DNA of 64,000 nt from an uncultured Collinsella sp. (GTDB lineage Bacteria; Actinomycetota; Coriobacteriia; Coriobacteriales; Coriobacteriaceae), in NCBI GenBank assembly GCA_949288855.1, contig CASELS010000001.1, positions 68,479 through 132,478 of the forward strand. Reading direction: 5' to 3'. Each line of letters begins with the position of its first letter. The stretch's first letter is position 1. The position numbers and the translations under genes were made by a program. Below the pieces are notes generated by a model, which had not been told where the DNA came from, ran no database searches, and worked only from the letters and a program-made list of their open reading frames with translations. Shown here piece after piece: positions 36,464-51,841 of the stretch.

Positions 36464-37249
36464 ATGATCAAGGCGGCATTCTTCGATATCGACGGTACGC
36501 TCGTGAGCTTTAGGACGCACGAGATTCCCCCGTCGGCGCTTGAGGCACTGCGCCGCATGCACGCCGCCGGTATCAAGCTCTTTATTGCAACAGGACGCGC
36601 GTCAAGTGGCCTGCCGGAGGTTATCCTCGACTTGCACAAGGAGCTCCCCTTCGACGGCTTCCTCACGTTTAACGGACAGTACTGCATAGACGCCGCAGGT
36701 AAGACCTATCGCGATGTACCGCTCAATACGCAGGACGTCAAGACCATCATCAAACAGGCCGAAGAAGGGCTTTACGAGCTGCAAGTCATGCAGCTTAGCC
36801 AGAACTTCGTCAACCGTCGCGGGCCGCGCGTGCGCCTGGCCGAGGCGCGGGTGGGTGGCGAAAGCATCGTTCGCGACCTCTCCCACGCCTTCGACGAGCC
36901 GGTGTATCAGCTGTGCGTATACGTGGCTCCCGGGGAGGAGGGGGTCTTTGCCGACGTTTGTCCTCACGTGACGCACGCGCGTTGGTGCGATTATTTCTGC
37001 GATGTTATCCCTGCAGACGGCGGTAAGCCGGCCGGTATTGCGGCAACCCTCGAGTGGCTCGGCATTGAACCCGAGGAGTGCGCGGCCTTTGGCGACGGCG
37101 GCAACGACGTCCCCATGTTCGGCTGCGTGGGCACGAGCGTCGCCATGGGCAACGCCTCAGACGCGGTCAAGGCCGCAGCCAGCTACGTCGCACCCGACAT
37201 CGACGAGGACGGCATCCTCGTCGCCTGCGAGGAGCTCGGTCTTATCTAA
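36464..37249 (+). CDS. Cof-type HAD-IIB hydrolase, copy 2
   Basis: Same motifs and same length (786 nt) as copy 1. Confidence 0.93.
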   Translation: MIKAAFFDIDGTLVSFRTHEIPPSALEALRRMHAAGIKLFIATGRASSGLPEVILDLHKELPFDGFLTFNGQYCIDAAGKTYRDVPLNTQDVKTIIKQAEEGLYELQVMQLSQNFVNRRGPRVRLAEARVGGESIVRDLSHAFDEPVYQLCVYVAPGEEGVFADVCPHVTHARWCDYFCDVIPADGGKPAGIAATLEWLGIEPEECAAFGDGGNDVPMFGCVGTSVAMGNASDAVKAAASYVAPDIDEDGILVACEELGLI

Positions 37250-38367
37250 CAATTGCCCCTTTCTTCGTTTGCCTGTCCGCCCTTTAAGGCAAACCGCTGC
37301 TTCTCGGTTTCTATGGCTTGACGCAGCTCGTCCTCGCTGGGGAGATAGAGCAGGTAGCTGCTCGCATAGAGCTGGTCGCTGTCGTGAAGGACGGAGTAGC
37401 GGGCGATGTCCGCGCTAGTCTCTGAGGTGAGGACGATTCCTATGGTGGGATTATCGTCGGCGCGCCGCACCTTGTCGTCGAACATGCGGACGTACATATC
37501 CATCTGCCCGACGTCTTGGTGGGTGACCGGGCCGCACTTGAGGTCCACGAGTACGTAACACTTCAGGATGACGTTGTAGAAGACAAGGTCGATATAGTAG
37601 TCCCCGCTCATGCCACGCAGATGGTATTGGCGCCCCATAAAGGCATAGCCTTTGCCCATCTCCAAGAGAAACTTTTGAAGGTTGGCGAGTATGGCGCTTT
37701 CCAGATCCGTCTCGCGCACCTCGGTATCGGGCGAGAAGCCGAGGAACTCAGCAACGTACGGGTCCTTGATGAACTCAGCAACGTGATACGCGCGCGTTTG
37801 GTATCGCGCGGCCTTTGCCTGCATCTCCTGCTCTACGGGCGCTTTGTTTCCCGAGAGGAGCAGGCGTTCATAATACTTTGTGCCAATGTTCCGTGCGAGC
37901 GTGCGGACGCTCCATCCCTGTTCGGATGCCTCGCGCGCGTACCAAGCGCGTGCGTCGTCATTGATAACGCGCAGAAGCTCGCGATAATGCGTCCAAGATA
38001 GCCTGTGCACCAATTGTCGACTCACTGAGTCGACAATTGTGGGAAACAGGCGATAGAACTGAACATATTTGTGAAGCTCCTGTTTGCCAAACCCCTTGCC
38101 CATAGTTTTAAGCTCGTTAGCGAGTCGTTCGATGACCTGTTTGCCGTATTCCGCACGATTGGCGCCTTTGAGCTCCTCCTCGGCAATGCGCTTGCCCAGG
38201 TACCAGTTGCGCAGCACCAAGGTTGTGTTGACAGAACGGCGTGCGGCGTCGTGGGCGCTTTCGATAATGGTCCGTGCATCCGCCACAATGTCTGCCGTTG
38301 ACTGATATGAAGAGTCTGCGGGTAGCGCAAAATATTGCCGCTTGGTAGGGATGACTAGAGTCTGCAT
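37246..38367 (-). CDS. YhcG/DUF1016 PD-(D/E)XK nuclease-family protein
   Basis: NWYLGKRI, LSWTHY, WSVRTL, KDPY, FLLEMGKGYAF, YIDLVFYN...VLVDLK and GQMDMY. Confidence 0.9.
   Translation of the reverse strand: MQTLVIPTKRQYFALPADSSYQSTADIVADARTIIESAHDAARRSVNTTLVLRNWYLGKRIAEEELKGANRAEYGKQVIERLANELKTMGKGFGKQELHKYVQFYRLFPTIVDSVSRQLVHRLSWTHYRELLRVINDDARAWYAREASEQGWSVRTLARNIGTKYYERLLLSGNKAPVEQEMQAKAARYQTRAYHVAEFIKDPYVAEFLGFSPDTEVRETDLESAILANLQKFLLEMGKGYAFMGRQYHLRGMSGDYYIDLVFYNVILKCYVLVDLKCGPVTHQDVGQMDMYVRMFDDKVRRADDNPTIGIVLTSETSADIARYSVLHDSDQLYASSYLLYLPSEDELRQAIETEKQRFALKGGQANEERGNC
38011..38039. repeat. Perfect intragenic palindrome CAATTGTCGACTCA-C-TGAGTCGACAATTG
   Basis: 14-bp perfect arms around a single central base. 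Confidence 0.9.
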
Positions 38368-38505
38368 GGACGAGGCATTTGCGTCGCCGCTGTGCGCTAA
38401 GATAGGGCAAAACATAACGATTGACCCGCACCGGCTTGCTCGGGCGGGTTTTCGGCGTGCGCGGCACGAAGGCTGGCGCCCGCGCCCGGCAAGACGGGAG
38501 ACCGC

Positions 38506-41500
38506 ATGCTTATCCATCGAATCGCCGCGCAGCTTTTCTGTGCAGAGGGCCCTGCCGCCATCGAGGCTGCGCTCGATGCGGGCAAGGACGCCACGCTTGC
38601 GGTGTCGCAGTCGGGGCGCACCCTTATGCTCGCCGCCCAGTTTGCCCGGCGCCCCCGTGCGACGGTCTACATCGTCTCGGGCGAGGAGGCGGCGGACCGC
38701 GCGGCGCGGGCCCTCGCTGCCTATCTGGGGCTGGAGCATGTGGTGCGCTACCCCGAGCGTCGCGATCTCCCCTGGAACGCCAAGGCGGATCTGGACGATG
38801 CCGCCGTAGCTCAGCGTTGCCAGGCGATCGGCCGTGTGGCGCGCGGCGAGGCCGTCATTATGGTTGCCTCGGCCCGCGCCCTGCTGCGCTGCGTGCCCGA
38901 TCCCTCGAGTCGCTACTGGCAGGAAGCGCATTTTGCGGTGGGGGATGAGGTCCCCTTTGAGGACGTGCCCCGCCGTCTGGTGGGTATGGGCTACACCGCC
39001 GCGGAGGCGGCAGATGCGCCGGGGCTCTTCCGCGTGCACGGCGATACGGTGGACGTCTTTCCCGCGCAGGGCACCTCGCCCGTACGCTTGGAGTTCTTTG
39101 GCGACGAGATAGACCGCATCCGCCGCATGGTGACTTCTACGGGCCAGACCATCGGCGACGAGCACGCCGTCGACATCTACCCCTGCCGCGAGCTCGCCCT
39201 GACCGATGACGCGCTCCATCGTCTGCGGGCCGCTCTGTATCAGCCGGCGCAGCAGGATACCGAGCTTGCGGCGCTGCTTGAGCTTGCCGAGGCACGTGTG
39301 GCCACGCCCGAGCTCGACCGTTTCCTGCCCCTTCTGTACGAACGCACCGTGACGCCGCTCGAGCATCTCGCCAAAGACGCACTCGTGGTCCTCTCGGAGC
39401 CGCGGTCGCTCTTTGACGACTGCTCGCGCGCCTATGAGGACTGGGAGCGCCGCGCGGGGGAGGCCCGCGTGAGCAGGCTCGACGGTCTGTACGTGCGTCC
39501 GCAGGAGCTCGACTTTGGCCGTCAGCAGCGTCTGAACTACGTCTCGCTCATCCGTGCGGGCGGTGCGGTCACCGCCGAGCTTAAGATCGAGCAGCCCGCC
39601 ATTGCGGGGTCCGACACGCGCTTTATCTCGCGTATTCGCGAATGCGTTTCAAACCGTTTTGCCGTGGTGTTCGCCGCGCCCGACCGCGGCGCTCGCGAGT
39701 CGCTCGAGCTCTCGCTCGGCGACGAGTCGATTCCCTTTGAGGAGTCGCTGCAGACCGCGCCCGAGAACGAGGGTGCGGTCGCTGCATCCATCCAGATCCG
39801 CGTGACCGACCCGCTCAACCTAAAGCGCATCGACCCCGCCGAACGTGCAACTACGGTGCCCACGCTCACGCGCGGCCGCGTCACCTTTGTCGATCTGCCG
39901 CTGCCCTCTGGTGTGGTGATTCCCGAGGCGCACCTCGCCATCTTCTCCATTGCCGACCTGAACGCGCGGCTCGACGCCCGCCGCGGGCGAGCCCGCCGCC
40001 GGCGTATAGACATCACCGAGGTGACCTTCCCCTTCAAGCCGGGGGACTACGTGGTCCATGCTACGCACGGCATCGCACTCTTCTCGTCCATCGTGCGCCA
40101 GGAGGTTGCGGGCCGCGAGCGTGATTACTTCCTTCTGGAGTACGCCGGCGGCGACAAACTGTACGTGCCGCTCGAGCAGGTCGACCGCATCACACGCTAC
40201 GTTGGTCCCGACGGCGACAGCCCGCGCCTCACGCGCCTCAACACGGCGGACTGGTCGCGCGCGACAAACAAGGCGCGCAAGAGCGCCAAAAAGCTCGCCT
40301 TCGACCTCGTCGACCTTTACACGCGCCGTAGCTCCATCACGGGTTTTGCCTGCCCGCCCGACACGCCCGAGCAGCTTGAGATGGAGGCGAGCTTTCCGTA
40401 CGAACCCACGCACGACCAGATCGAGGCCATCCACGACATCAAGGCCGATATGGAGTCTGCCAAACCCATGGACCGCCTGCTCTGCGGCGACGTGGGCTTT
40501 GGCAAGACGGAGGTGGCGCTGCGCGCGGCGTTCAAGTGCGTTGATTCCGGCCGGCAGGTGATGGTGCTCTGCCCCACGACGATTCTCGCGCAGCAGCACT
40601 ACCAGACGTTCTTTGAGCGCTTTGCGCCCTTTGGGGTGGAGGTCGAGGTGCTCTCCCGTTTCCGCACGCCGGCACAGCAAAAGCGCGCGCTCGCCGCGTT
40701 TGCCGAAGGCAAGGTCGATGTGCTGGTGGGCACGCATCGCCTGCTTTCCTCGGATGTCAACCCGGCGCGCCTGGGCCTTGTCATCATCGACGAGGAGCAG
40801 CGTTTTGGCGTGCAGCACAAAGAGCAGCTCAAAAATTTGCGCGAGCAGATTGACGTGCTCACGCTCTCGGCAACGCCTATCCCGCGCACCATGCAGATGG
40901 CGATCAGCGGCGTGCGCGACATGTCGCTCATCACCACCCCGCCCACGGGGCGCCGCCCGGTCATCGTCCATGTGGGTGAGTACGACCCAGACGTGGTGTC
41001 GGCTGCCATCCGCCTGGAGCTCGAGCGCAAGGGGCAGGTCTATTACGTGAGCAACCGCGTGAAGACCATCGACGACGCGGTCGACCGCGTGCACGAGGTC
41101 GCGCCCGAGGCACGCGTGGGCGTGGCACACGGCAAGATGAGTCCACGCGAGGTCGAGGACGTCATGATCGACTTCGCTACGGGCAAGATCGACGTGCTCG
41201 TGGCAACGACCATCATCGAGAGCGGCATCGACAATCCGCATACCAACACCCTCATCATCGAGGACTCGCAGCGCTTGGGTCTCGCTCAGCTCTACCAGCT
41301 GAAGGGTCGCGTGGGCCGTTCGGCCACGCAGGCGTATGCCTACTTCATGTTCCCGGGCGAGATTCCGCTCACGCCCGAGGCCACCGAGCGCCTGACCGCC
41401 CTCGCTGAGTTCCAGGACCTGGGAAGTGGCATGCGCATCGCCATGCGCGACCTCGAGATCCGCGGTGCGGGGTCGCTTGTGGGTGCCGAGCAGCACGGCA

Positions 41501-42072
41501 ACCTCTCAAGCGTGGGCTTTGACCTCTTCACGCAGATGCTGGGGCAGGCGGTGGCCGAGGCGCGCGGCGAGGGCGGCGACGTTGAGGAGGCAAGTGTCAC
41601 CATCAACCTGCCGGCGGATTTCTTCTTGGCGGAGGAGTACGTGCCCGCGGTCGACAAGCGCGTGCTCGTCTACCGTAAGGTCGCCGCGGCAGATACGCTG
41701 GCTGCGGTGGACGAGGCCGAAGCCGCGTGCGCAGAGGAGTTTGGCGAGTTGCCGCTTGCCGCCAAGAATCTCTTCGACCGCGCGCGTCTGCGCATCCGCG
41801 CCGACCGGCTGGGGCTCGAGAGCATCTCGCTCGCGGCGGGACGCCTCACGTTCCAGGGCGTCGACGTACCCAAGACGGTCGCCTTCGACCTCAAGAGTCG
41901 CCTGTCTGCGGTGAACTTCCCCAAGAGCCGCAAGCTTTCGGTGCCCTACAAGGCGGGCGCCGGGTCGGGTACCGGCGTGGGGCGCGGGCTCGACGCCAAC
42001 GACCCCGCCGGTCCTGTGGCCGCGGCACTCAAGGTGCTCGAGCAGCTCGCCCCTTCCGGCGACGACGACTAG
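38506..42072 (+). CDS. mfd: Transcription-repair coupling factor
   Basis: UvrB-like N-terminus, RID (GDYVVHATHGI), CGDVGFGKT, DEEQRFG, QLKGRVGR and TRCF domain. Confidence 0.97.
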   Translation: MLIHRIAAQLFCAEGPAAIEAALDAGKDATLAVSQSGRTLMLAAQFARRPRATVYIVSGEEAADRAARALAAYLGLEHVVRYPERRDLPWNAKADLDDAAVAQRCQAIGRVARGEAVIMVASARALLRCVPDPSSRYWQEAHFAVGDEVPFEDVPRRLVGMGYTAAEAADAPGLFRVHGDTVDVFPAQGTSPVRLEFFGDEIDRIRRMVTSTGQTIGDEHAVDIYPCRELALTDDALHRLRAALYQPAQQDTELAALLELAEARVATPELDRFLPLLYERTVTPLEHLAKDALVVLSEPRSLFDDCSRAYEDWERRAGEARVSRLDGLYVRPQELDFGRQQRLNYVSLIRAGGAVTAELKIEQPAIAGSDTRFISRIRECVSNRFAVVFAAPDRGARESLELSLGDESIPFEESLQTAPENEGAVAASIQIRVTDPLNLKRIDPAERATTVPTLTRGRVTFVDLPLPSGVVIPEAHLAIFSIADLNARLDARRGRARRRRIDITEVTFPFKPGDYVVHATHGIALFSSIVRQEVAGRERDYFLLEYAGGDKLYVPLEQVDRITRYVGPDGDSPRLTRLNTADWSRATNKARKSAKKLAFDLVDLYTRRSSITGFACPPDTPEQLEMEASFPYEPTHDQIEAIHDIKADMESAKPMDRLLCGDVGFGKTEVALRAAFKCVDSGRQVMVLCPTTILAQQHYQTFFERFAPFGVEVEVLSRFRTPAQQKRALAAFAEGKVDVLVGTHRLLSSDVNPARLGLVIIDEEQRFGVQHKEQLKNLREQIDVLTLSATPIPRTMQMAISGVRDMSLITTPPTGRRPVIVHVGEYDPDVVSAAIRLELERKGQVYYVSNRVKTIDDAVDRVHEVAPEARVGVAHGKMSPREVEDVMIDFATGKIDVLVATTIIESGIDNPHTNTLIIEDSQRLGLAQLYQLKGRVGRSATQAYAYFMFPGEIPLTPEATERLTALAEFQDLGSGMRIAMRDLEIRGAGSLVGAEQHGNLSSVGFDLFTQMLGQAVAEARGEGGDVEEASVTINLPADFFLAEEYVPAVDKRVLVYRKVAAADTLAAVDEAEAACAEEFGELPLAAKNLFDRARLRIRADRLGLESISLAAGRLTFQGVDVPKTVAFDLKSRLSAVNFPKSRKLSVPYKAGAGSGTGVGRGLDANDPAGPVAAALKVLEQLAPSGDDD

Positions 42073-42081
42073 CTCAGCGCG

Positions 42082-42106
42082 TTTGGGGACGGGTTCAAAC
42101 CGTGCA
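42082..42106 (-). repeat. Third copy of the GGGGACGGGTTCAAACCGTGCA repeat
   Basis: Reverse complement of the 26987/27032 unit, 10 nt after the mfd stop. Confidence 0.8.
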
Positions 42107-42182
42107 ACAGCTCGCTCAGGGGCGGCTTCACCTCGTCACCATAGGTTCTGTACGGCATTCTGATTGATAGGGGCAAAACAGC

Positions 42183-42782
42183 ATGAGCGATGTGACCATT
42201 CGCGTGGCGCGGCCTGAAACCGATGCGCCCCGCTGCCACGAGATTTACGCGCCCTACGTGCGCGACACGGCGATCACGTTTGAGTACGAGCCGCCGACGC
42301 TCGCGGAGTTCACCGCGCGCATGGCGCGCACGCTCGAGCGCTATCCCTATCTGGTGGCCGAGCGATCCGGTGCGGACGGCCAGCCTCACATTGTGGGTTA
42401 CGTCTACGCAAGCCCCTTTAAGGCACGCCCCGCCTACGACTGGGCGGTGGAGACCTCCATCTACGTCGACCGGGTGGAGCGCCGAAGCGGTGTGGGCCGG
42501 GCGCTCCACAACGCCCTCGAGCGCTGTCTTGTTACCCAGGGTATCCTCAACATGGAGGCCTGCATCGCCACGACCGATGTGGAGGACGAGCACCTCACCA
42601 ACGATAGCTGGCGCTTCCACGAGCACATGGGCTACCGCCTCGTGGGCGAGTTTAGGCAGTGCGGTTACAAGTACGGCCGTTGGTGGAACATGATCTGGAT
42701 GGAGCGGCACATTGCCCCGCACCGCCCAGACCAGCCGGCCGTGCGACCGTTTCCCGAGGTGCGGGACCAGCTCTTCGCCTAG
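42183..42782 (+). CDS. GNAT N-acetyltransferase (phosphinothricin/MddA-like)
   Basis: TAITFEYEPP, ETSIYV, RRSGVGRAL, FHEHMGY and GYKYGRW. Confidence 0.9.
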   Translation: MSDVTIRVARPETDAPRCHEIYAPYVRDTAITFEYEPPTLAEFTARMARTLERYPYLVAERSGADGQPHIVGYVYASPFKARPAYDWAVETSIYVDRVERRSGVGRALHNALERCLVTQGILNMEACIATTDVEDEHLTNDSWRFHEHMGYRLVGEFRQCGYKYGRWWNMIWMERHIAPHRPDQPAVRPFPEVRDQLFA

Positions 42783-42972
42783 CAACCCCCCAACGCCGGG
42801 CGCTTTGCTGCGTACAGGGGATGGGTGCGGCCCATCGCATCGCTCGTGACGGAAAACCGCGCGGTTGTGACATCGCCCGCCGCGATAGCGCCTTTCCGCA
42901 GCTTCCCGATGGTAGTATGGAGCCCTATTCCCCGCATTGGACAGTAGCAGATCACGCGGGGGGGGGTGCTCT

Positions 42973-43737
42973 ATGTATACGGTGGCCATAGTGGAGGACG
43001 ATGCGGCGCACGCCGCCGAGCTCGCTCGCATGATTGCGGCCTCGCCCGCGGCGGAGCATCTTGAGCTCGCGGCAGCGTGGCGGGCGGTCGACAACATCCA
43101 GCGGACGCCTTCGGATGATGCGTCTCCGCGCCCCTTGGATACCGACTCCCATCGCGTGCTCTCGGCAGCGGCGTTACCCGACATTCTCTTTGTTGATGTG
43201 CGGCTGGCAGACGGCCTCAACGGCATCGACCTCGTCCACCGGCTCATTCCGTCCACCGCACCCGTGCAGGTCATCTACGTCTCCGCCTATCTTGAGTACG
43301 CGCCCGCTGCATATCACACGCGCCACACGTGGTTTCTCTCCAAGCCTGTGGTGCAAGACGAGCTCAACGCGGCGCTCGCCCGTGCCGTCGAAGCGCTGGA
43401 TACGGAGCGGGCGGAGCCCTTGCTGGTCCACCAGGGTACCTCGCTCATCCGTATCGCGCCGCGCGAGGTGCGCTATATCGAGAGCGACCGCCGCAAGGTG
43501 CGCATCCACGAGCGCACGCGCACGGTGGAGGCCTATGCGCGCATATCAGAGCTCGAGGCGCAGCTGCCCGACCAGTTTGTGCGCTGCCATAAGAGTTTTC
43601 TCGTCAACTTGGCGTATGTGGCGGAGTTTACCGGTCGCGAGCTCATTCTTACGGACGGCACGCATCTTCCGGTAAGTCAGCGCTGCCGTAAAACGTTTGC
43701 CGAGCGCCTCATGGCCTTCGTCCGCCGAACGCTGTAG
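42973..43737 (+). CDS. LytTR-family response regulator
   Basis: IVEDD, ILFVD (phosphoacceptor), LSKP and LytTR motif FVRCHKSFLVN...LPVSQR. Confidence 0.92.
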   Translation: MYTVAIVEDDAAHAAELARMIAASPAAEHLELAAAWRAVDNIQRTPSDDASPRPLDTDSHRVLSAAALPDILFVDVRLADGLNGIDLVHRLIPSTAPVQVIYVSAYLEYAPAAYHTRHTWFLSKPVVQDELNAALARAVEALDTERAEPLLVHQGTSLIRIAPREVRYIESDRRKVRIHERTRTVEAYARISELEAQLPDQFVRCHKSFLVNLAYVAEFTGRELILTDGTHLPVSQRCRKTFAERLMAFVRRTL

Positions 43738-43744
43738 GTGGACG

Positions 43745-44632
43745 ATGGGCGAGGGCGCGCTTCAGGTGCTTATCACGCTTGTCGGCGGCGTCAACACGTT
43801 CGTCATGTGCTGGAATATGGCTATGGCGCTACCTATGCGCGGCCGTACAGCCTATCTTGTTGCGAGCGGCGCGGCCATGGCGTTCGATATCGTCACGGGT
43901 GAGGTATATCCCGCAGTCGCGCGCATACACATCCTGCTCTGCATGTTCATCCTGCCGCCGTTTTTGATGCGCGGCCCCGTGGCGCGCCGTCTCGTAGCCA
44001 CGGCGCTCTGCATCGGGGTGGCGATTGCAGGCGAGGTTACGGGCTTTTTGTTTCTTGTACTTGCAGGAAAGCCCATCGATGCTGCGGCGGTGATGGCTGA
44101 GGACCCGGTGCTGCTCCTCGCACTCCGCCTGCTCGCGTTTGCTGTTCTTGTCGCCTGCGGGCGCCTCGTGTGCGCGTTCATGGCGCGTTGGACGCACGGC
44201 GACCGCATAAACGTTGTCCTGCCTCGTTTTGCGGTGACCGCCCTTTGCTGCGCGATGCTGGCGAGCATCATGTACTCCCTGTTCGTGGCAGAGGGCATCT
44301 CATCCACCCATCCTCTTGCACGCGCGGGCTTGGCGTGCATGATCGCATTACCGCCGATCTTGGTGGTTCTGTTGGTGCAGGTGGAGCGGGCGCGTCGCAC
44401 CGCAATCGCACGGGCGCAGACGCGCGTGGCGCAAGAGCAGCTGGACACCTGCCTCGCAGCGTATGACCGCGTCATGCACGCCACGGTGCGCACCGCGCAA
44501 CTTCGTCACGACGCACGCAACCACCTGCAAGCAATCGATGCCCTTATGGCGGAAGGCGACCTCGAGCGAGCAGCTGCCTATGCACGCGAGATGGCCGATC
44601 TGCTCGCCCATGAGGACGGTGAGTCCTCATGA
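43745..44632 (+). CDS. AgrC-like membrane sensor with H-box but no ATPase domain
   Basis: About 6 TM helices, a coiled coil and LRHDARNHL (His codon 44507-44509); the stop comes right after the DHp helices. Confidence 0.8.
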   Translation: MGEGALQVLITLVGGVNTFVMCWNMAMALPMRGRTAYLVASGAAMAFDIVTGEVYPAVARIHILLCMFILPPFLMRGPVARRLVATALCIGVAIAGEVTGFLFLVLAGKPIDAAAVMAEDPVLLLALRLLAFAVLVACGRLVCAFMARWTHGDRINVVLPRFAVTALCCAMLASIMYSLFVAEGISSTHPLARAGLACMIALPPILVVLLVQVERARRTAIARAQTRVAQEQLDTCLAAYDRVMHATVRTAQLRHDARNHLQAIDALMAEGDLERAAAYAREMADLLAHEDGESS

Positions 44633-45693
44633 GGGAGATCTCTCTCGCGCTCGTATGCGCGGCAACGCTTGCCGTGGGTATCTCATTCGCAGCGCTCGCC
44701 CGCAGATACCGCGCGCTTCCTATCGGCAGCCGCGTGCTCACGGCGCTCATCGCTGCGTGGCAGGTGGCGACGCTGATGATTATTGTTTTCGCGGGACTTG
44801 CGGACGCGTCAGCCAGCGTGGTGCTTCTCGAGCTCGCGGCGGTAGTTGCCGGTGCGGGCTCCACCGTGTCGAATGCGTGGCTCCTTGCCGGTATCTCCGA
44901 GGCGGGCGAGCTCGAGGCGAGCCGCGCCCGCGCGCGGGCACTGGAGGAGCAGGTTGCGCTGCAGCAGGCGCACCTTACGCAAACGGAGCAGACGCTCGCA
45001 GTGGCTCGGCAAGATCGCATGCGTTATGCAACGGAATTCACCCGTATCGCCGATGCGTTGGCGTCAGGCGACGCGGCGGCGGCGCGGGAGGGGTTGTCGC
45101 GCACCGAGGAGGCGCTTCCGCGTTTTGGCGGCCGCCTCTGCGCGCACCCCGTTGTCGATGCGCTTCTCAAGGCAAAGATGGCGCAGGCAAAGGAGCGGGG
45201 TGCGCAGCTCGTCGTGCATGCCGAGGTTCCGGCGGATATCGGTATCACCGATGCCGAGCTCTGTGCGGTCATCTCTAACCTGGTGGATAACGCTCTCACC
45301 GCGGCGGTTCAGGCAGACGCGGAAGAGGCGGCTGGCAGCGAGCAAACGGCATCGCAAGGCGGGGCGCGGTGTGAGGAGGACGCGCCTGTCGACATGGTGC
45401 CTACGGTTACGGTGCGCATGCGCGCGACTCAGGGCTACCTCGTCCTCGCGGTGGAAAACCCTTGCACCCTGGAGCAGGCGGCTGCCATCGACCGACTGAA
45501 GCCGCGTCGCATGCCACCTCGCCTGCGACACGTGCGCCGTGACGGGATGGACATCGGGGAAGCCTCGCTGCTCCCTGAACACGGCTGGGGCCTCACCATC
45601 GTGTGCGACCTTGCCGAGCGCCGTGAGGGCACCCTCACGCTCAAACAGCGGGGCGGTATGCTCCGTGTCGATGTGGTCCTCAAGCTAGATTAG
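44629..45693 (+). CDS. Membrane-anchored GHKL ATPase protein lacking the phosphoacceptor His
   Basis: About 3 TM helices, a coiled coil, ARQD at the H-box position, N-box SNLVDNA and G-box HGWGL; ATGA overlap with the previous gene. Confidence 0.8.
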   Translation: MREISLALVCAATLAVGISFAALARRYRALPIGSRVLTALIAAWQVATLMIIVFAGLADASASVVLLELAAVVAGAGSTVSNAWLLAGISEAGELEASRARARALEEQVALQQAHLTQTEQTLAVARQDRMRYATEFTRIADALASGDAAAAREGLSRTEEALPRFGGRLCAHPVVDALLKAKMAQAKERGAQLVVHAEVPADIGITDAELCAVISNLVDNALTAAVQADAEEAAGSEQTASQGGARCEEDAPVDMVPTVTVRMRATQGYLVLAVENPCTLEQAAAIDRLKPRRMPPRLRHVRRDGMDIGEASLLPEHGWGLTIVCDLAERREGTLTLKQRGGMLRVDVVLKLD

Positions 45694-45736
45694 CTTTGAG
45701 GCAGGGGGATACGGTGTGCGCTGCTTCTGCCCCTTG

Positions 45737-45766
45737 CGATGCGTCTGCTCGGATACACGACGCGTC
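45737..45766 (+). promoter_or_regulatory. Candidate LytTR binding site: CGA(T/C)GCGTC direct repeats with 12-bp spacer
   Basis: 45737-45745 and 45758-45766; 9-12-9 geometry as in AgrA sites. Confidence 0.4.
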
Positions 45767-45903
45767 GGTTGGGGCGTTCGCTGCCATGAGTTTTGACATA
45801 GAGCGCTGCGTTTGTGGCAAAGCGCTGGCACCCCGCGTCTCGCTGTAGAAAATGAAATCCATGCTTGATTGCTGCGGATGTTGTACCACCTGAGGGGGAT
45901 TCT

Positions 45904-47316
45904 ATGGCTTCATCGCGTTTTGCCAAACCGTTTATCGTCGCCGGTCTCACCGGCGCGCTCGCCCTTGCCGCTCCGGCGACCGTTTTCGCCCAGGACGTCG
46001 CCGCGCCCACCGGAGGTGTCGCCGCCGTTCCGTCGCCGAGGATATCCGGGGCAGTTAATTATCATCTGACAGGCATAATGACCAACGGGGAATACGCCCT
46101 GTACGCCGGTGGATCGTGGCCTCATCAAGACCCCATGTTTCAGTTGTTCCGTGAACAAGATGGCGTTGTGGATCGGCTCTCTGAGGGTGTTACGTTCTCA
46201 TCAAGCGATGAAAGCGTGCTTTGGATTTCGTCTGACGGCTGCGCGATGAGAACGGGCAATGCGCCGGGCACGGCGATAATCACCGCAACTTACCAAGGCG
46301 AAGCGGTGGCAAGCCTTACGTATCAGGTTGTGGAGTATACCGGTGAGGGTCCCGTCGATACGGATCCAGTGTCGAGACAATATGCATTTAGTTCCTATTC
46401 CAGCACGTCGGCCATCCCGGGGGAAACGGTCATTCATTTGGGAAGCCGCCTGACGCTGGATACTTTCCAGGTTTCACCGGCGGATGCCGGTGGCAATCCT
46501 GCTGGTGACCCAGTCTCTGACGAGCTGGTGAAGTACAGATCTAGCAATTTGGATGTGCTTCTGGTAAACGAAGACGGCGGCTATATCGAAGGCGTGAATC
46601 CCGGAGAGGCGAAGCTTATCGCCACCGTATATGATGGCGAGGGAAATAAGCTCGGTGAGGCGTCCATAGCGTACACGGTTCCCGGATATGTTAGCCTGCT
46701 CGACCTCTGCAGTGTGTACCACAATCCCCTTTCTGCGGAAGAGCAGGAAGTGGATATAAGCTATGGCCGGATGGGCGTCTCGGGAGTCTCATATGATTTG
46801 AGCAAGGGGCCTGGTTCTTGCGGGCTTTCGCTGTACGTTTCAGACCGCATCGATGACGGTGAATCGAACGTGACGTATTCCGGAATTACCGTCAGCTCGG
46901 ACAACGAGGGCGTTGTGCGCGTTGCGAAGGATGAGGAAAAGGACCTTGCGGTACTGGAGTTTGTTGGTTCCGGTACTGCTACTGTTTCGATTGTTGGCAA
47001 TTTTACGGTAGACGGCAAAGCGGAAACCATCACGCGTACCGTTGATGTCACCGTGACGGGCGCACTCTCGGGCGGTGGCGAGCAGGGCGGTGGCCAAGGC
47101 GGCCAGGCAACCGAGGAACAGCCGACGGACGAACAGAAGCCTGCCGACACTACAGACAAGAAAGACGACGATAAGACCGACAAGAACGCTGACAAGAAGG
47201 GCGAGGGCGACCTCCCCGAGACGGGTGACCCCGCTCTTCTGGCGGTCGGTCTGAGCGGTCTTGCCGGCGCAGGTGCAATTGGTGCAGCGGCCGCGCTGCG
47301 CCGCCGCAAGCGCTAG
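45904..47316 (+). CDS. LPXTG-anchored surface protein with Ig-like (Big_2-type) repeats
   Basis: Sec signal (VFA-Q); repeated SSxxxV...G.A.ITAT motifs; G/Q/K/D-rich linker; LPETG, TM helix and RRRKR. Confidence 0.88.
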   Translation: MASSRFAKPFIVAGLTGALALAAPATVFAQDVAAPTGGVAAVPSPRISGAVNYHLTGIMTNGEYALYAGGSWPHQDPMFQLFREQDGVVDRLSEGVTFSSSDESVLWISSDGCAMRTGNAPGTAIITATYQGEAVASLTYQVVEYTGEGPVDTDPVSRQYAFSSYSSTSAIPGETVIHLGSRLTLDTFQVSPADAGGNPAGDPVSDELVKYRSSNLDVLLVNEDGGYIEGVNPGEAKLIATVYDGEGNKLGEASIAYTVPGYVSLLDLCSVYHNPLSAEEQEVDISYGRMGVSGVSYDLSKGPGSCGLSLYVSDRIDDGESNVTYSGITVSSDNEGVVRVAKDEEKDLAVLEFVGSGTATVSIVGNFTVDGKAETITRTVDVTVTGALSGGGEQGGGQGGQATEEQPTDEQKPADTTDKKDDDKTDKNADKKGEGDLPETGDPALLAVGLSGLAGAGAIGAAAALRRRKR

Positions 47317-47382: not shown

Positions 47383-47416
47383 CGTTCGTTGCGATGGGTG
47401 CGGGGAGGTGCGCGGC

Positions 47417-49435
47417 ATGGCGGCCACGGTGAGCATGGACGAGGCGCGGCAAGCGCTCGGCACGTACTTTGGTTACAGCGCGTTTCGCCCCGGGCAGGAG
47501 CGTCTCGTCGCGGCGATACTCGCCGGCCGCGATGCGCTCGGCGTCATGCCCACCGGTGCCGGCAAGTCCATCTGCTACCAGATTCCCGCGCTCACGCTGC
47601 CCGGCCTCACGCTCGTGGTGAGCCCCCTCGTCTCGCTTATGGGCGACCAGGTGCGCGCGCTCAAGGCGGCGGGCGCCCGGCCCTCGTATCTCAACTCGAC
47701 CCTCACCCCGGCTCAACAGAACACAGTGCTCAAGCGCGCCCGCGAGGGCTGGTACCAGATCATGTACGTGGCGCCCGAGCGCCTGGCAGACGAGCGCTTC
47801 TGCGCCTTCGCGCGCGAGGTGGCGGGGCCGGACGGTATCGGCATTCCCCTCGTTGCGGTGGACGAGGCGCACTGCGTCTCCCAGTGGGGACAGGATTTTC
47901 GCCCCTCGTACCTCGAGATCGCGCGCTTTATCGGCGAGCTGCCGGTGCGCCCCGTCGTGGCGGCGTTCACGGCGACGGCGACCGAGCGCGTGCGCGCTGA
48001 CATCATCCAGATGCTCGGCCTCCGCCGGCCCGAGACGGTGGTGACCGGTTTTGACCGCACCAACCTTTACTTTGGAGTGGAGGAGATGGGCGACAAAGCT
48101 AAGGCCGTCTGGATCCGTAATTATGCCCGTGCGCATGCCGACGAGAGCGGCATCATCTACTGCTCGACGCGCAAGGCGGTGGACGAGCTCGCTTTTAACT
48201 TGGGGCGCGAACTCGCACCGGCGGGCATTCGTGTGGGCCGCTACCATGCGGGTATGTCGGCGGGCGAACGCCTGGAGAACCAGGCCGCCTTTATCGACGA
48301 CCTTATGCCAGTGATTGTGGCGACCAACGCCTTTGGCATGGGAATCGACAAGCCAAACGTGCGCTACGTGATTCACCACAACGTGCCCGAGAGCATCGAG
48401 GCCTACTACCAGGAGGCGGGCCGCGCCGGGCGCGACGGCGATCCTGCGGAGTGCCACCTGCTTTGGAACGGTAATGATTTTCGCCTCAGACGCTACCTTA
48501 TCGACCGCACGGACGACGAGTCGGAACTCGACGACGAGGCGCGCGAGCGCGCCCGTCAGAATCGTTACCGCCTGCTCTCCGCCATGGAGGGCTACTGCGA
48601 GACCACGGGCTGTTTGCGTGCCTACATCTTGCGCTACTTTGGCGACGAAGGTGCGCTCGGGGTGTCCGAGGGCACCGCGCGCCCTGACGCATGCTCGCCT
48701 GATAGCGCACGGACAGGTTGCGGCAACTGCTCCAACTGCACGACGGCCTACGAGGTGGAGGACGTGACCGAGACCGCCCGCGAGGCGGTGCGTTTCGTGC
48801 AGGCGTGCGGCGGCCGCTTTGGCCGCGCCCTTGTGGCTGATGCCCTGCACGGCGCCAACACCGAGCGCATACGGCAGTACCGCTTGGACGACCTTCCGGG
48901 CTACGGTGCCCTGCACGAAGAGCCTGTGGCGCGCATCAAAGATGTGATTGGCCAGCTCATCGGCCGTGGGTACCTCACGCAGTCGCAGGGGCAGTTCCCT
49001 GTGGTAAGTCTCGGTCCCCGCGCGGTCGAGGTGCTGGGAGAAGATGGGGGAGCGGCGTTCTCCCTCACGGTAAAGCGCCGCGTCGCCGCCCGTCGCGCTC
49101 CCGCGCGGGCTCGCAAGGCGGTCGATATCTTGCGCTCCGAGGCAGCGGAAGACGCCCGTCCGCGCGTAGGCGACGATGCGGAGCTCTTCGAGCGTTTGCG
49201 CGAGGTCCGTCGCGAGCTCGCCATCGAGCGCGCGTGGGCGCCGTATATGATCGCAAGTGACAAAGCCCTGCGCGGCATGTGCCGACGCCGTCCCGCCACG
49301 CGTGCGGAGCCCCTGGAGGTGCCCGGCATCGGCGAGAAAAAAGTGGATGACTTCGGTGACGCCTTTCTAGCGGAAATCGCTCGGTTCGAGGACGCGTACA
49401 GTGCTGAAGGACCTGCGCGCGGCGCCCGCGTCTAA
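47417..49435 (+). CDS. recQ: RecQ-family DNA helicase
   Basis: MPTGAGKSICYQ, VDEAHCVSQWG, QEAGRAGRDG, Zn-binding CGNCSNC, RQC and HRDC domains. Start codon uncertain. Confidence 0.95.
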   Translation: MAATVSMDEARQALGTYFGYSAFRPGQERLVAAILAGRDALGVMPTGAGKSICYQIPALTLPGLTLVVSPLVSLMGDQVRALKAAGARPSYLNSTLTPAQQNTVLKRAREGWYQIMYVAPERLADERFCAFAREVAGPDGIGIPLVAVDEAHCVSQWGQDFRPSYLEIARFIGELPVRPVVAAFTATATERVRADIIQMLGLRRPETVVTGFDRTNLYFGVEEMGDKAKAVWIRNYARAHADESGIIYCSTRKAVDELAFNLGRELAPAGIRVGRYHAGMSAGERLENQAAFIDDLMPVIVATNAFGMGIDKPNVRYVIHHNVPESIEAYYQEAGRAGRDGDPAECHLLWNGNDFRLRRYLIDRTDDESELDDEARERARQNRYRLLSAMEGYCETTGCLRAYILRYFGDEGALGVSEGTARPDACSPDSARTGCGNCSNCTTAYEVEDVTETAREAVRFVQACGGRFGRALVADALHGANTERIRQYRLDDLPGYGALHEEPVARIKDVIGQLIGRGYLTQSQGQFPVVSLGPRAVEVLGEDGGAAFSLTVKRRVAARRAPARARKAVDILRSEAAEDARPRVGDDAELFERLREVRRELAIERAWAPYMIASDKALRGMCRRRPATRAEPLEVPGIGEKKVDDFGDAFLAEIARFEDAYSAEGPARGARV

Positions 49436-49724: not shown

Positions 49725-50849
49725 ATGTCTGCCTTTGGTCGCGCTCCATTCGATTCTGCCGCGGCATCCGATGCCGCTTATGCGTCCGTGCGCAACAAGG
49801 TGTTTCCACAGGATATCTTCCGTGCGCCAGAGCTGCGCTGGGCAGTGATTGGTTGCGGCGTTGTTGCCAACCAGATGGCGCAGACGCTCGCGCTCGCCGG
49901 TCGCCACCTAGCGGGTGTCGCTAATCGCACATATGAGAAAGCCCTTGCGTTTGCCGAACGCTATGGTGTCGAGCGCGTGTACCGGACCTTCGACGACCTT
50001 TACGCCGACCCGGATGTCGACGCCGTCTACATCACCACGCCGCACAACACCCATCTCGCGTTTTTACGGCGTGCCCTCGCGGCGGGCAAGCATGTGCTCT
50101 GCGAGAAGTCCATCACGCTCAACGCCGCCGAGCTTGTAGAGGCGCGCGAGCTCGCCGCCGTGCACGGCGTGGTGCTTATGGACGCCACCACGATTCTGCA
50201 CATGCCCCTGTATACCAAGCTTCTCGACCGCGCCCGCGCGGGAGAGTTTGGTCCGCTCAATCTCACCCAGGTGAATTTTGGCAGCTACAAGGAGTACGGC
50301 GACCTTACCAATCGCTTCTACAATCCGCAGCTTGCCGGGGGAGCGATGCTCGATATCGGCGTGTACGCGCTCACCATCGCCCGCCTCTTCATGGCGAGCG
50401 CGCCCACCGAGGTTGTGTCGCTCGCCAACCGCGCCCAGACGGGCGTGGACGAAACGAGTGGGTTTGTGTGCCGCAACGCCGAGGGGCAGATTGGCGTGTT
50501 CTCCCTCTCGCTCCATTCCAAGCAGCCCAAGCGCGCTATGCTTTCCTTCGACCGGTGTTATATCGAGGTTGACGCGTATCCGCGCGCCGACCGTGCGATT
50601 ATCACCTGGACCGACGACGGTCATCGCGAAGTCGTCGGGGCGGGAGAGGAGGGCTACGCGCTCGCCTACGAGGTAGCCGATCTCGAAGCAGCCGTTGCCG
50701 GCGATGAGCACGCGGCTGGCCTCATCGACATCGCCGCCGATGTTATGGATCTCATGACGCGCCTGCGCTACGAATGGGGCGTCTACTATCCCGAGGAGGC
50801 AGACCTCGCCCGCGCTGCCGGCGTCGCCGTGGCCGGAGAGGACCGCTAG
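49725..50849 (+). CDS. Gfo/Idh/MocA oxidoreductase
   Basis: IGCGVVA, GKHVLCEK and GGAMLDIGVY. Confidence 0.92.
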   Translation: MSAFGRAPFDSAAASDAAYASVRNKVFPQDIFRAPELRWAVIGCGVVANQMAQTLALAGRHLAGVANRTYEKALAFAERYGVERVYRTFDDLYADPDVDAVYITTPHNTHLAFLRRALAAGKHVLCEKSITLNAAELVEARELAAVHGVVLMDATTILHMPLYTKLLDRARAGEFGPLNLTQVNFGSYKEYGDLTNRFYNPQLAGGAMLDIGVYALTIARLFMASAPTEVVSLANRAQTGVDETSGFVCRNAEGQIGVFSLSLHSKQPKRAMLSFDRCYIEVDAYPRADRAIITWTDDGHREVVGAGEEGYALAYEVADLEAAVAGDEHAAGLIDIAADVMDLMTRLRYEWGVYYPEEADLARAAGVAVAGEDR

Positions 50850-50920: not shown

Positions 50921-51841
50921 GTGCCCATCCGCATCCCCGACGCTCTGCCCGCAACCGCGGCGCTCGAGGCCGAGAACATCTTTGTCATGACGGAGTACCG
51001 CGCTATCCACCAGGACATCCGCCCCCTGCGCGTACTCATCTTGAACCTCATGCCCACCAAGGTCGCCACCGAGACCCAGATCATGCGCAAACTTTCCAAC
51101 ACGCCGCTGCAGATCGAGGTCGAGCTGCTGCGCACGGCGAGCCATGAGGCGGCGCATGTGGCGGCAAGCCATCTGGAAACGTTCTACCGCACATTCGACG
51201 AGGTGCGCCACGAACGCTTCGATGGCCTCATCATCACGGGCGCGCCGGTGGAGGAGATGCCTTTTGAGGAGGTCGATTATTGGGACGAGCTCTGCCGAAT
51301 CATGGACTGGTCGACCACTCACGTGCACTCGACGCTCCATATCTGCTGGGGCGCGCAGGCGGGACTCTACTTCCACTACGGCATTGACAAGCACCCGCTT
51401 CCCAAGAAGGCGTCGGGCGTTTTTGAGCATCGTATCGTCAAGCCGAGCTCGCCGCTCGTGCGCGGACTCGACGACCGCTTCTACGCCGTTCACTCGCGCA
51501 ACACCGAGGTGCGAGCCGAGGACGTGGCGCGCGTGCCGGAGCTCGAGGTGATTGCGGACTCGCCCGAGGTGGGGCTCTACATTGTGAAGTCTACCGACAG
51601 CCGTCGTTTCTTTATCTTTGGCCACCCCGAGTACGACGTCGACACCCTCGCGCTCGAATACGAGCGCGACGTGGCGCGCGGCATCGACCCCGAGGTACCC
51701 GCTCATTACTTCCCTGATAACGACCCCGCGCGCTCGCCGGTGAACACGTGGCGCGCGCAGGCGCAGCTTCTTTATACCAACTGGCTCAACTACTACGTCT
51801 ACCAGACCACACCCTACGACATCCGCACGGTCGGTAAGTAG
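50921..51841 (+). CDS. metA: Homoserine O-acyltransferase (MetA family)
   Basis: HQDIRPL, LNLMP, ITGAPVE, ICWGAQA, HSR and GHPEY. Confidence 0.95.

Follow-up and report, generated by a model that had tools for sequence, protein, structure and literature searches.

A likely two-protein AgrC-type histidine kinase with complementary halves in Collinsella and related gut Actinobacteria

Gene content of the locus

The window, i.e. the whole 64,000-nt stretch analysed here from an uncultured Collinsella sp. (contig CASELS010000001.1), contains four genes in a row on the plus strand between positions 42973 and 47316. The first encodes a LytTR response regulator of 254 amino acids (aa; 42973-43737, ATG at 42973 to TAG at 43737). 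It is followed by protein A (43745-44632, ATG at 43745 to TGA at 44632, 295 aa), a membrane sensor with a DHp domain only, and by protein B (44629-45693, ATG at 44629, 354 aa), its putative His-less catalytic subunit. The fourth gene encodes a sortase-anchored surface protein (45904-47316, probable ATG at 45904, end of the open reading frame at 47316). The start codon of A lies 7 bases past the regulator stop and is preceded by an AGGTGGA ribosome-binding site. The start of B overlaps the TGA stop of A in an ATGA, a 4-base overlap that recurs in related loci, and a 210-bp gap separates B from the surface-protein gene. An initial annotation made from the sequence alone had described these four genes, an H-box in A and N- and G-boxes in B, and all of them were recovered here.

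Protein A carries the histidine, protein B the ATPase domain

According to hydropathy and manual reading, A starts with a membrane part of 6-7 hydrophobic helices followed by a coiled coil. Its H-box LRHDARNHL (RHDARNH, His255) is of the RHDxxN type. The C-terminus is reached ~35 residues past the DHp turn, and Pfam gives no ATPase-domain match. A weak Pfam match to SPOB_a, the Spo0B-type DHp domain, covers residues 269-303 of a longer A translation from a TTG start (P0002, 311 aa), and a PDB search with the A profile returned spurious helical-repeat matches only. The A-type proteins studied here have no Pfam or NCBIfam match above the cut-offs and consequently carry no kinase annotation.

We aligned 26 members of the A family, most of which share only 15-25% identity with A of the window. 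Arg254-His255-Asp256 is invariant in all 26, the next Asn is nearly so, and every one of the proteins ends soon after the second DHp helix. An exhaustive profile search yielded 238 clusters of A-type proteins at E<=1e-30, nearly all of them ~290-330 aa and uniform in length. Among the best 150 A-family matches ~137 measure 236-401 aa and ~12 measure 602-674 aa, and none has the length of a one-piece kinase (~430-460 aa).

Protein B, read in the same way, begins with three hydrophobic helices and a coiled coil; in some relatives, and in the natural fusions described below, the membrane part is down to two helices. Its GHKL domain displays the N-box ISNLVDNAL (N217/N221), N277 and the G-box HGWGL (H318-G319-W320-G321). 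The Pfam model HATPase_c_5 scores 21.4 bits on B of the window against a cut-off of 22 bits, and HATPase_c matches weakly. A second B paralog of the same genome, on contig C104, passes the HATPase_c_5 cut-off. The best solved relative of the B-family profile is the AgrC kinase module 6e52 (2.3e-06), with an alignment that spans DHp and CA domains and in which sNllDNA, veNsC and HGWGl of B face the AgrC motifs. In 26 aligned B proteins Lys183, Cys212, Asn217, Asn221, Asn277, His318-Gly319, Gly321 and Ile324 are invariant. The position facing the phosphoacceptor histidine is in contrast occupied by M, E, A, V, K, D, T, S or R, and five of the 26 proteins have no histidine at all in the 75-residue helical region. 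As far as the alignments tell, the B proteins share no conserved histidine, and His255 of A is the sole conserved one in the phosphoacceptor region of the A/B pair.

Both proteins are under purifying selection: the ratio of nonsynonymous to synonymous substitution rates (dN/dS) against close orthologues amounts to 0.21-0.33 for A and 0.24-0.50 for B.

Kinship of A and B and the register of the missing histidine

The 26 A and the 26 B proteins were compared profile to profile. Residues 143-291 of A align with residues 20-164 of B at a probability of 98.8% (E 7e-17), free of gaps around the H-box. In this alignment Arg254-His255-Asp256 of A face Arg130-Met131-Arg132 of B. The alignment with 6e52 gives the same register by placing Arg130 of B on the AgrC arginine and position 131 on the AgrC histidine. 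The residue at the histidine site is hence Met131 (codon 45019-45021). The initial annotation had read the RQD within the B string ARQDRMRY as the counterpart of RHD. It was right in that B lacks the histidine at this site and in locating the CAA codon at 45010-45012, and wrong in the register by three residues: Gln128, and RQD with it, lies three residues upstream of the true site, and we replaced that register by the one given above.

When the shared region was placed on a tree, the 27 B rows, with the second halves of the fusions among them, came out as a single clade (support 98/85). One long-branch one-piece sequence aside, the 29 A rows likewise group together (92/92), and the subclades within A find their counterparts within B. 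This pattern fits one old duplication of a full kinase, followed by complementary loss in the two copies and then by co-inheritance of the pair. The profile alignment and the tree thereby bear out the earlier proposal of complementary loss between two kinase paralogs. A simple fission of one kinase gene was discarded as an explanation. A severed tail of A would lack membrane helices and a DHp-like hairpin, whereas B has both, each homologous to its counterpart in A. Nor are the two frames one gene broken by a frameshift, as had been recognised before: orthologues (87-93% identity) and relatives down to ~20% identity keep both frames, the stop of A and the membrane N-terminus of B.

Distribution and gene linkage

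A word-based homologue search with B found only 11 close relatives. A scan for related loci was run with an 11-row B alignment. B of the window is 88% identical to B of Collinsella sp. An307, and the locus is present in chicken-gut metagenomes. Searches with B revealed B-like proteins of 305-390 aa in the genomes of many relatives, each with an A-like gene adjoining. In 301 genomes of the class, each full-length B match adjoins a full-length A match, across four families of the order. The module occurs in Collinsella, Coprousia, Rubneribacter, Ellagibacter, Senegalimassilia, Eggerthella sinensis, Adlercreutzia and Enteroscipio, and moreover in four Bifidobacterium species, which belong to another class.

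All 20 loci that were fetched contain regulator, A and B. Among 61 loci with a strong B match A lies alongside in 59, and the regulator is also present in 51. One of the two exceptions is cut at a contig end, the other is a lone B discussed below. The order regulator-A-B was counted 26 times and regulator-B-A 11 times; A-B-regulator, B-regulator-A, regulator-A-A-B, regulator-A-B-A and one B followed by 4-5 A genes also occur. The varied orders indicate that selection keeps the gene set and not one operon layout. Beyond the trio no conserved neighbours were found in these loci; the flanks vary (YaaA, BioY, peptidases, amidases, a transposase, large proteins without Pfam match).

The genome of the window holds a second regulator-A-B module, interrupted only by an assembly gap (loci L032 and L031). 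The regulator and the N-terminus of A lie at C11:4-1006 (minus strand), the tail of A and B at C104:9-1146 (plus strand). Collinsella sp. An307 has an intact counterpart (L080).

Judged from the sequences compared, the complementary defects of A and B are a family trait and not the decay of one strain. Strain-specific decay, against which the initial annotation had asked for a check, was ruled out because orthologues and distant relatives show the split too, and the dN/dS values given above point the same way.

The order with 4-5 A genes after one B is that of an uncultured Eggerthellaceae metagenome-assembled genome (MAG; L062, 3465-7919), where a run of four or five A paralogs comes after the B gene. 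One of these paralogs seems to carry a frameshift. Among the loci seen, this is the most extreme array of many sensors and one catalytic subunit. Outside the Actinobacteria, short B-like proteins (220-311 aa) stand beside LytTR regulators on Firmicutes contigs assigned to Clostridia and Erysipelotrichaceae (L090, L091, L094, L100), and one-piece relatives of 450-490 aa were seen in L089 and L095. These proteins may be other split or unsplit forms.

Natural fusions of A and B

In one Adlercreutzia locus A and B are encoded by a single open frame of 687 codons. A search with this fused frame uncovered a clade of proteins of 632-693 aa with 29-76% identity, eight of which were aligned. The clade as a whole is put at roughly 600-690 aa, and ~12 of the best 150 A-family matches belong to it. 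The names given to these proteins go no further than 'GHKL domain-containing protein' or 'sensor histidine kinase', the former being the sole annotation of the 632-aa protein of Adlercreutzia equolifaciens.

The order within the fusions is A, a variable linker, two transmembrane helices, a second hairpin without histidine and the ATPase domain with N- and G-boxes. RHDLRNQ is kept in the first hairpin only, in all fusions aligned. Since the first helix of B is lost, the topology is consistent: the cytoplasmic DHp region leads into a two-helix membrane hairpin and from there into a cytoplasmic ATPase domain. As far as sequence can tell, conserved fusion is strong evidence that A and B work as one unit at 1:1.

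Model of the A:B complex

The complex of full-length A and B was modelled using the two 26-row alignments, taking the median of three runs and comparing with three controls. The interaction prediction score from aligned errors (ipSAE) is 0.65 for A:B vs 0.00 for the best of the controls; the mark applied to this score is reached by 58 of 80 solved complexes and by 2 of 110 mismatched pairs. At least 87% of the contacts are common to the runs, and the predicted local distance difference test score (pLDDT) of the partner is at least 73. The modelled interface is continuous and comprises membrane contacts of A 156-213 with B 31-89, the coiled coils, and contacts of A 253-291 with B 129-164. In the model the second DHp helix of A packs on the first of B in the geometry of a kinase DHp bundle. 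A kinase-like A:B dimer is plausible according to this prediction.

Regulator, surface protein and candidate regulatory sites

The regulator matches Pfam LytTR (1.2e-22) and Response_reg (1.4e-07). Its best NCBIfam matches are of the BtsR, AgrA and LytR types, every one of them under its cut-off. The translated receiver retains an acidic pair (EDD), the acceptor Asp within ILFVDVRL at residue 75 counted from the ATG, the Ser (YVSAY) and the Lys (FLSKP). An unusual insert of ~30 residues (WRAVDNIQRTPSDDASPRPLDTDSHRVLSAAALPD) separates the N-terminal acidic pair from the acceptor Asp in this receiver (gene 42973-43737), and owing to the insert Pfam matches just the C-terminal two thirds of the domain.

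The surface protein consists of a signal peptide, a Big_2 Ig-like domain, LPETG, a transmembrane helix and RRRKR, and Pfam reports Big_2 and Gram_pos_anchor. In the Collinsella loci closest to this one (L003, L004, L006, L007) its gene likewise follows B, which is not the case in other genera.

Two candidate LytTR-type direct repeats with a 21-bp period were found by eye, both on the plus strand. The one upstream of the operon (TCGTGAC-N14-TTGTGAC, 42844-42871) is followed by a -10-like hexamer TAGTAT, and its block is conserved in the Collinsella loci L033-L036 even where DNA further upstream diverges. The other (TTTTGAC-N14-TTTGTGGC, 45791-45818) lies in the gap before the surface-protein gene. 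In relatives at 45% B identity (L034, L038, L039) TTGTGAC-N14-TTTGTGAC is located between B and the surface gene. A direct-repeat finder, at its settings, reported nothing in the two promoter regions. We regard the repeats as weakly supported candidates for regulatory sites, their 21-bp spacing fitting LytTR regulators. The surface protein is probably a regulated target, and from these sequence patterns the regulator would control both its own operon and the surface-protein gene.

Proposed mechanism and alternatives

We consider it likely that A and B together constitute an obligate heteromeric kinase of the AgrC type (HPK10 class) which feeds the LytTR regulator. This reading is built on domain content, family-wide complementary defects, gene linkage, natural fusions and paralogy, all of which are observed. 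For the complex itself, the path of the phosphate, the regulated genes and the signal input we infer the following scheme. Pairing would involve the last membrane helix, the coiled coil and the helical hairpin of each protein, which are homologous between A and B, and would yield a hetero four-helix bundle resembling the DHp core in a normal kinase dimer. The GHKL domain of B would bind ATP and phosphorylate His255 of A. Phosphorylated A would then hand the phosphate to the Asp of the adjacent regulator, which would in turn activate both the operon that encodes it and, further downstream, the LPXTG surface-protein gene via the direct repeats with 21-bp spacing. By its large membrane domain of 6-7 helices A would be the sensor and B mainly the catalytic partner. 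Free A may in addition dephosphorylate the regulator because it keeps H-D-x-x-N, the phosphatase motif of kinases (PMC3591291).

The obligate heteromer had already been put forward in the initial annotation and is still something we infer; in its favour are the gene trio, the natural fusions, the A:B model compared with its controls and a genome in which no other AgrC-type ATPase domain appears to be available. The only HATPase_c_5 match in the genome is the second B paralog, which has its own A, with B of the window just under the search threshold, and this search turned up no one-piece AgrC-type kinase able to serve A. The accompanying idea that the heteromer integrates two signals fared worst, as the membrane part of B is small, comprises two helices in some relatives and fusions, and the FasB equivalent is dispensable (PMC12675982). 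Signal multiplexing would more likely stem from several alternative A subunits that share one B, an arrangement found in related loci. A more specific picture can be offered tentatively, as possible rather than probable: a hard-wired asymmetric kinase with one active site per A:B, in which 1 to ~5 A paralogs per locus, with a second module besides in the genome of the window, compete for B, and free A acts as phosphatase. This would provide a multiplexed, switch-like LytTR input to surface proteins in gut Actinobacteria, and the fusions would represent the bundle as a single chain.

Several observations weigh against the heteromeric kinase and should be set against the support listed above. 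The Pfam ATPase matches of B stay just below the curated cut-offs in the present strain, and a variable insert of 34 residues (~229-262) is located in the ATP pocket. Two of the 26 B proteins do have a histidine at the aligned position. The lone B-like gene mentioned above, in a Coriobacteriaceae MAG (L037, 3294-4445), has neither A nor a regulator within 3.3 kb upstream. The pass of the complex model may reflect solved kinase homodimers together with the paralogy of A and B, and the model does not separate A:B from A:A or B:B; the stoichiometry may be AB or A2B2. Finally, the repeat pattern occurs twice in the 64-kb window vs 0.39 times expected, a count that is circular as the pattern was derived from the same sites.

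One alternative is a pair that forms no joint kinase, in which A is a DHp phosphatase or phosphate sink and B a silent pseudokinase or scaffold, the regulator being phosphorylated by another kinase or by acetyl phosphate. DHp-only proteins with H-D-x-x-N could be phosphatases (PMC3591291), the ATPase matches of B are sub-threshold in this strain, and the genome has five LytTR regulators and few matching kinases. However, N217, N221, N277 and HGWG are invariant in 26 diverged B proteins, and a silent scaffold would need none of them; the histidine of A is invariant, the fusions keep both halves intact, and no other AgrC-type ATPase domain was found in the genome. We therefore rate this explanation as unlikely. 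Still less probable is that B is an active GHKL kinase with another acceptor, either an unconventional residue within B or a Ser/Thr of A or of the regulator, while the histidine of A serves another role. GHKL serine kinases do exist, namely the anti-sigma-factor kinases SpoIIAB and RsbW, and B has no conserved histidine. Yet the best structural relative of B by sequence is AgrC, aligned through both DHp and CA, B keeps a DHp-like hairpin homologous to that of A, and the FasBC precedent puts the histidine on the partner (PMC12675982). A conserved Ser/Thr motif did not come to notice either, though no search was aimed at one. That the pair is functionless debris of one or two decayed kinase genes would account for each protein alone being devoid of a feature that histidine kinases need, but it is hardly conceivable given the same two-gene layout in more than 59 loci of two classes of Actinobacteria, dN/dS well under 1, invariant catalytic motifs and 238 A-type clusters of uniform length.

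Comparison with known systems

The closest precedent for the heteromeric kinase proposed here is FasB/FasC/FasA of Streptococcus pyogenes. FasC 1-286 (transmembrane part and DHp, with an essential His246) and FasB 216-448 (DHp and ATPase domain) suffice for activity, FasB and FasC interact with each other and not with themselves in a two-hybrid test, and the LytTR/ComE-type regulator FasA is phosphorylated on Asp60 (PMC12675982, Mol Microbiol 2025). Like FasBCA, the Collinsella trio has two adjacent AgrC-like membrane proteins beside a LytTR regulator, with the histidine on one partner and the ATPase domain on the other; at the sequence level these are the sole copies in the Collinsella pair. 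In contrast, FasB and FasC are full-length, kinase-like proteins with dispensable spare parts, whereas A lacks an ATPase domain and B, with only three (elsewhere two) membrane helices, lacks the histidine. Several A per B and covalent A-B fusions are further differences of the Collinsella-type family, as far as FasB and FasC can be likened to it by their published description. By this analogy the Collinsella pair is a physically trimmed variant of the Fas design and not a new principle.

With AgrC/AgrA of Staphylococcus aureus (6e52, 4bxi) the trio shares the polytopic sensor, the RHDxxN H-box, the LytTR partner and a HATPase_c_5-type GHKL domain in which N..DNA and GxGL boxes are present and the classical DxGxG box is missing. 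AgrC, however, has all functions on one chain and forms a homodimer, while in Collinsella neither A nor B alone is complete and together they have all parts. His-less and kinase-dead mutants of staphylococcal AgrC reportedly complement each other in trans.

The split-kinase concept is established for CheA3/CheA4 of Rhodobacter sphaeroides, and HisKA-only proteins have been predicted to follow it as well (PMC3591291). CheA3/CheA4 resemble the Collinsella pair by combining a His protein without kinase domain and a kinase domain without His; neither autophosphorylates alone, and the His-bearing part is also a phosphatase (PMC3591291). They differ in being class II kinases of chemoreceptor arrays with the histidine on an Hpt-type P1 domain, whereas A and B are both membrane proteins of the DHp-based class I. 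Pfam finds no Hpt, CheW or P2 domain in the proteins of the locus. Unlike CheA, A and B of Collinsella probably form one hetero four-helix bundle. GacS and RetS of Pseudomonas aeruginosa are two sensor kinases that pair via their DHp domains (as cited in PMC12675982). Both are, however, complete kinases that also homodimerise, RetS inhibits GacS, and there is no complementary loss.

A split AgrC-type kinase in Actinobacteria was not described in any paper found in our literature search. Histidine kinases are normally homodimers, and their symmetry as well as cis or trans phosphorylation had to be probed with engineered pairs of mutants. The family described here would offer natural and permanently asymmetric kinases in the form of separate subunits, of several sensors per catalytic subunit and of single-chain fusions, and biochemical and structural studies would gain small parts that can be handled separately. 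Its members are spread widely among common genera of the gut (Collinsella, Eggerthella relatives, Adlercreutzia, Bifidobacterium). The mechanism put forward for FasBC in 2025 would accordingly be no peculiarity of streptococci but a design that is stable in evolution. As A-type proteins are unannotated as kinases and the fusions vaguely named, censuses of two-component systems likely miscount them, and the genome annotation of both kinds of protein needs correction.

Genomic surroundings and strain variation

The genes flanking the locus are ordinary or housekeeping genes. Upstream, the span 37246-42782 includes a YhcG/DUF1016 nuclease (minus strand), the transcription-repair coupling factor Mfd (38506-42072) and a GNAT acetyltransferase (42183-42782). 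Downstream follow a RecQ helicase (47408-49435), a Gfo/Idh/MocA oxidoreductase (49725-50849) and a homoserine O-succinyltransferase (50921-51841). No AgrB match (PF04647) was obtained in the genome, which is 89% complete. A candidate for AgrD was not seen near the locus either, although small AgrD-like peptides could escape such a look. On the basis of the missing AgrB match and of the neighbours Mfd, GNAT, RecQ and the surface protein, an agr quorum-sensing locus was ruled out.

Contigs of related chicken-gut strains match the window at 95-99% from 44686 onward, i.e. over B from ~residue 20 and over the surface gene. Upstream of 44686, on the side of A and the regulator, the same contigs are unlike the window. 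This pattern suggests a mosaic locus whose sensor side is subject to divergence or exchange. Within B, positions 45314-45396, part of the insert in the ATPase domain, form a diverged patch of the same length in these contigs. Two runs labelled RNA-Seq resemble DNA, and contigs assembled from them are uninformative on transcription. In the MAG with the lone B-like gene, the genes preceding it resemble purine biosynthesis genes by sequence.

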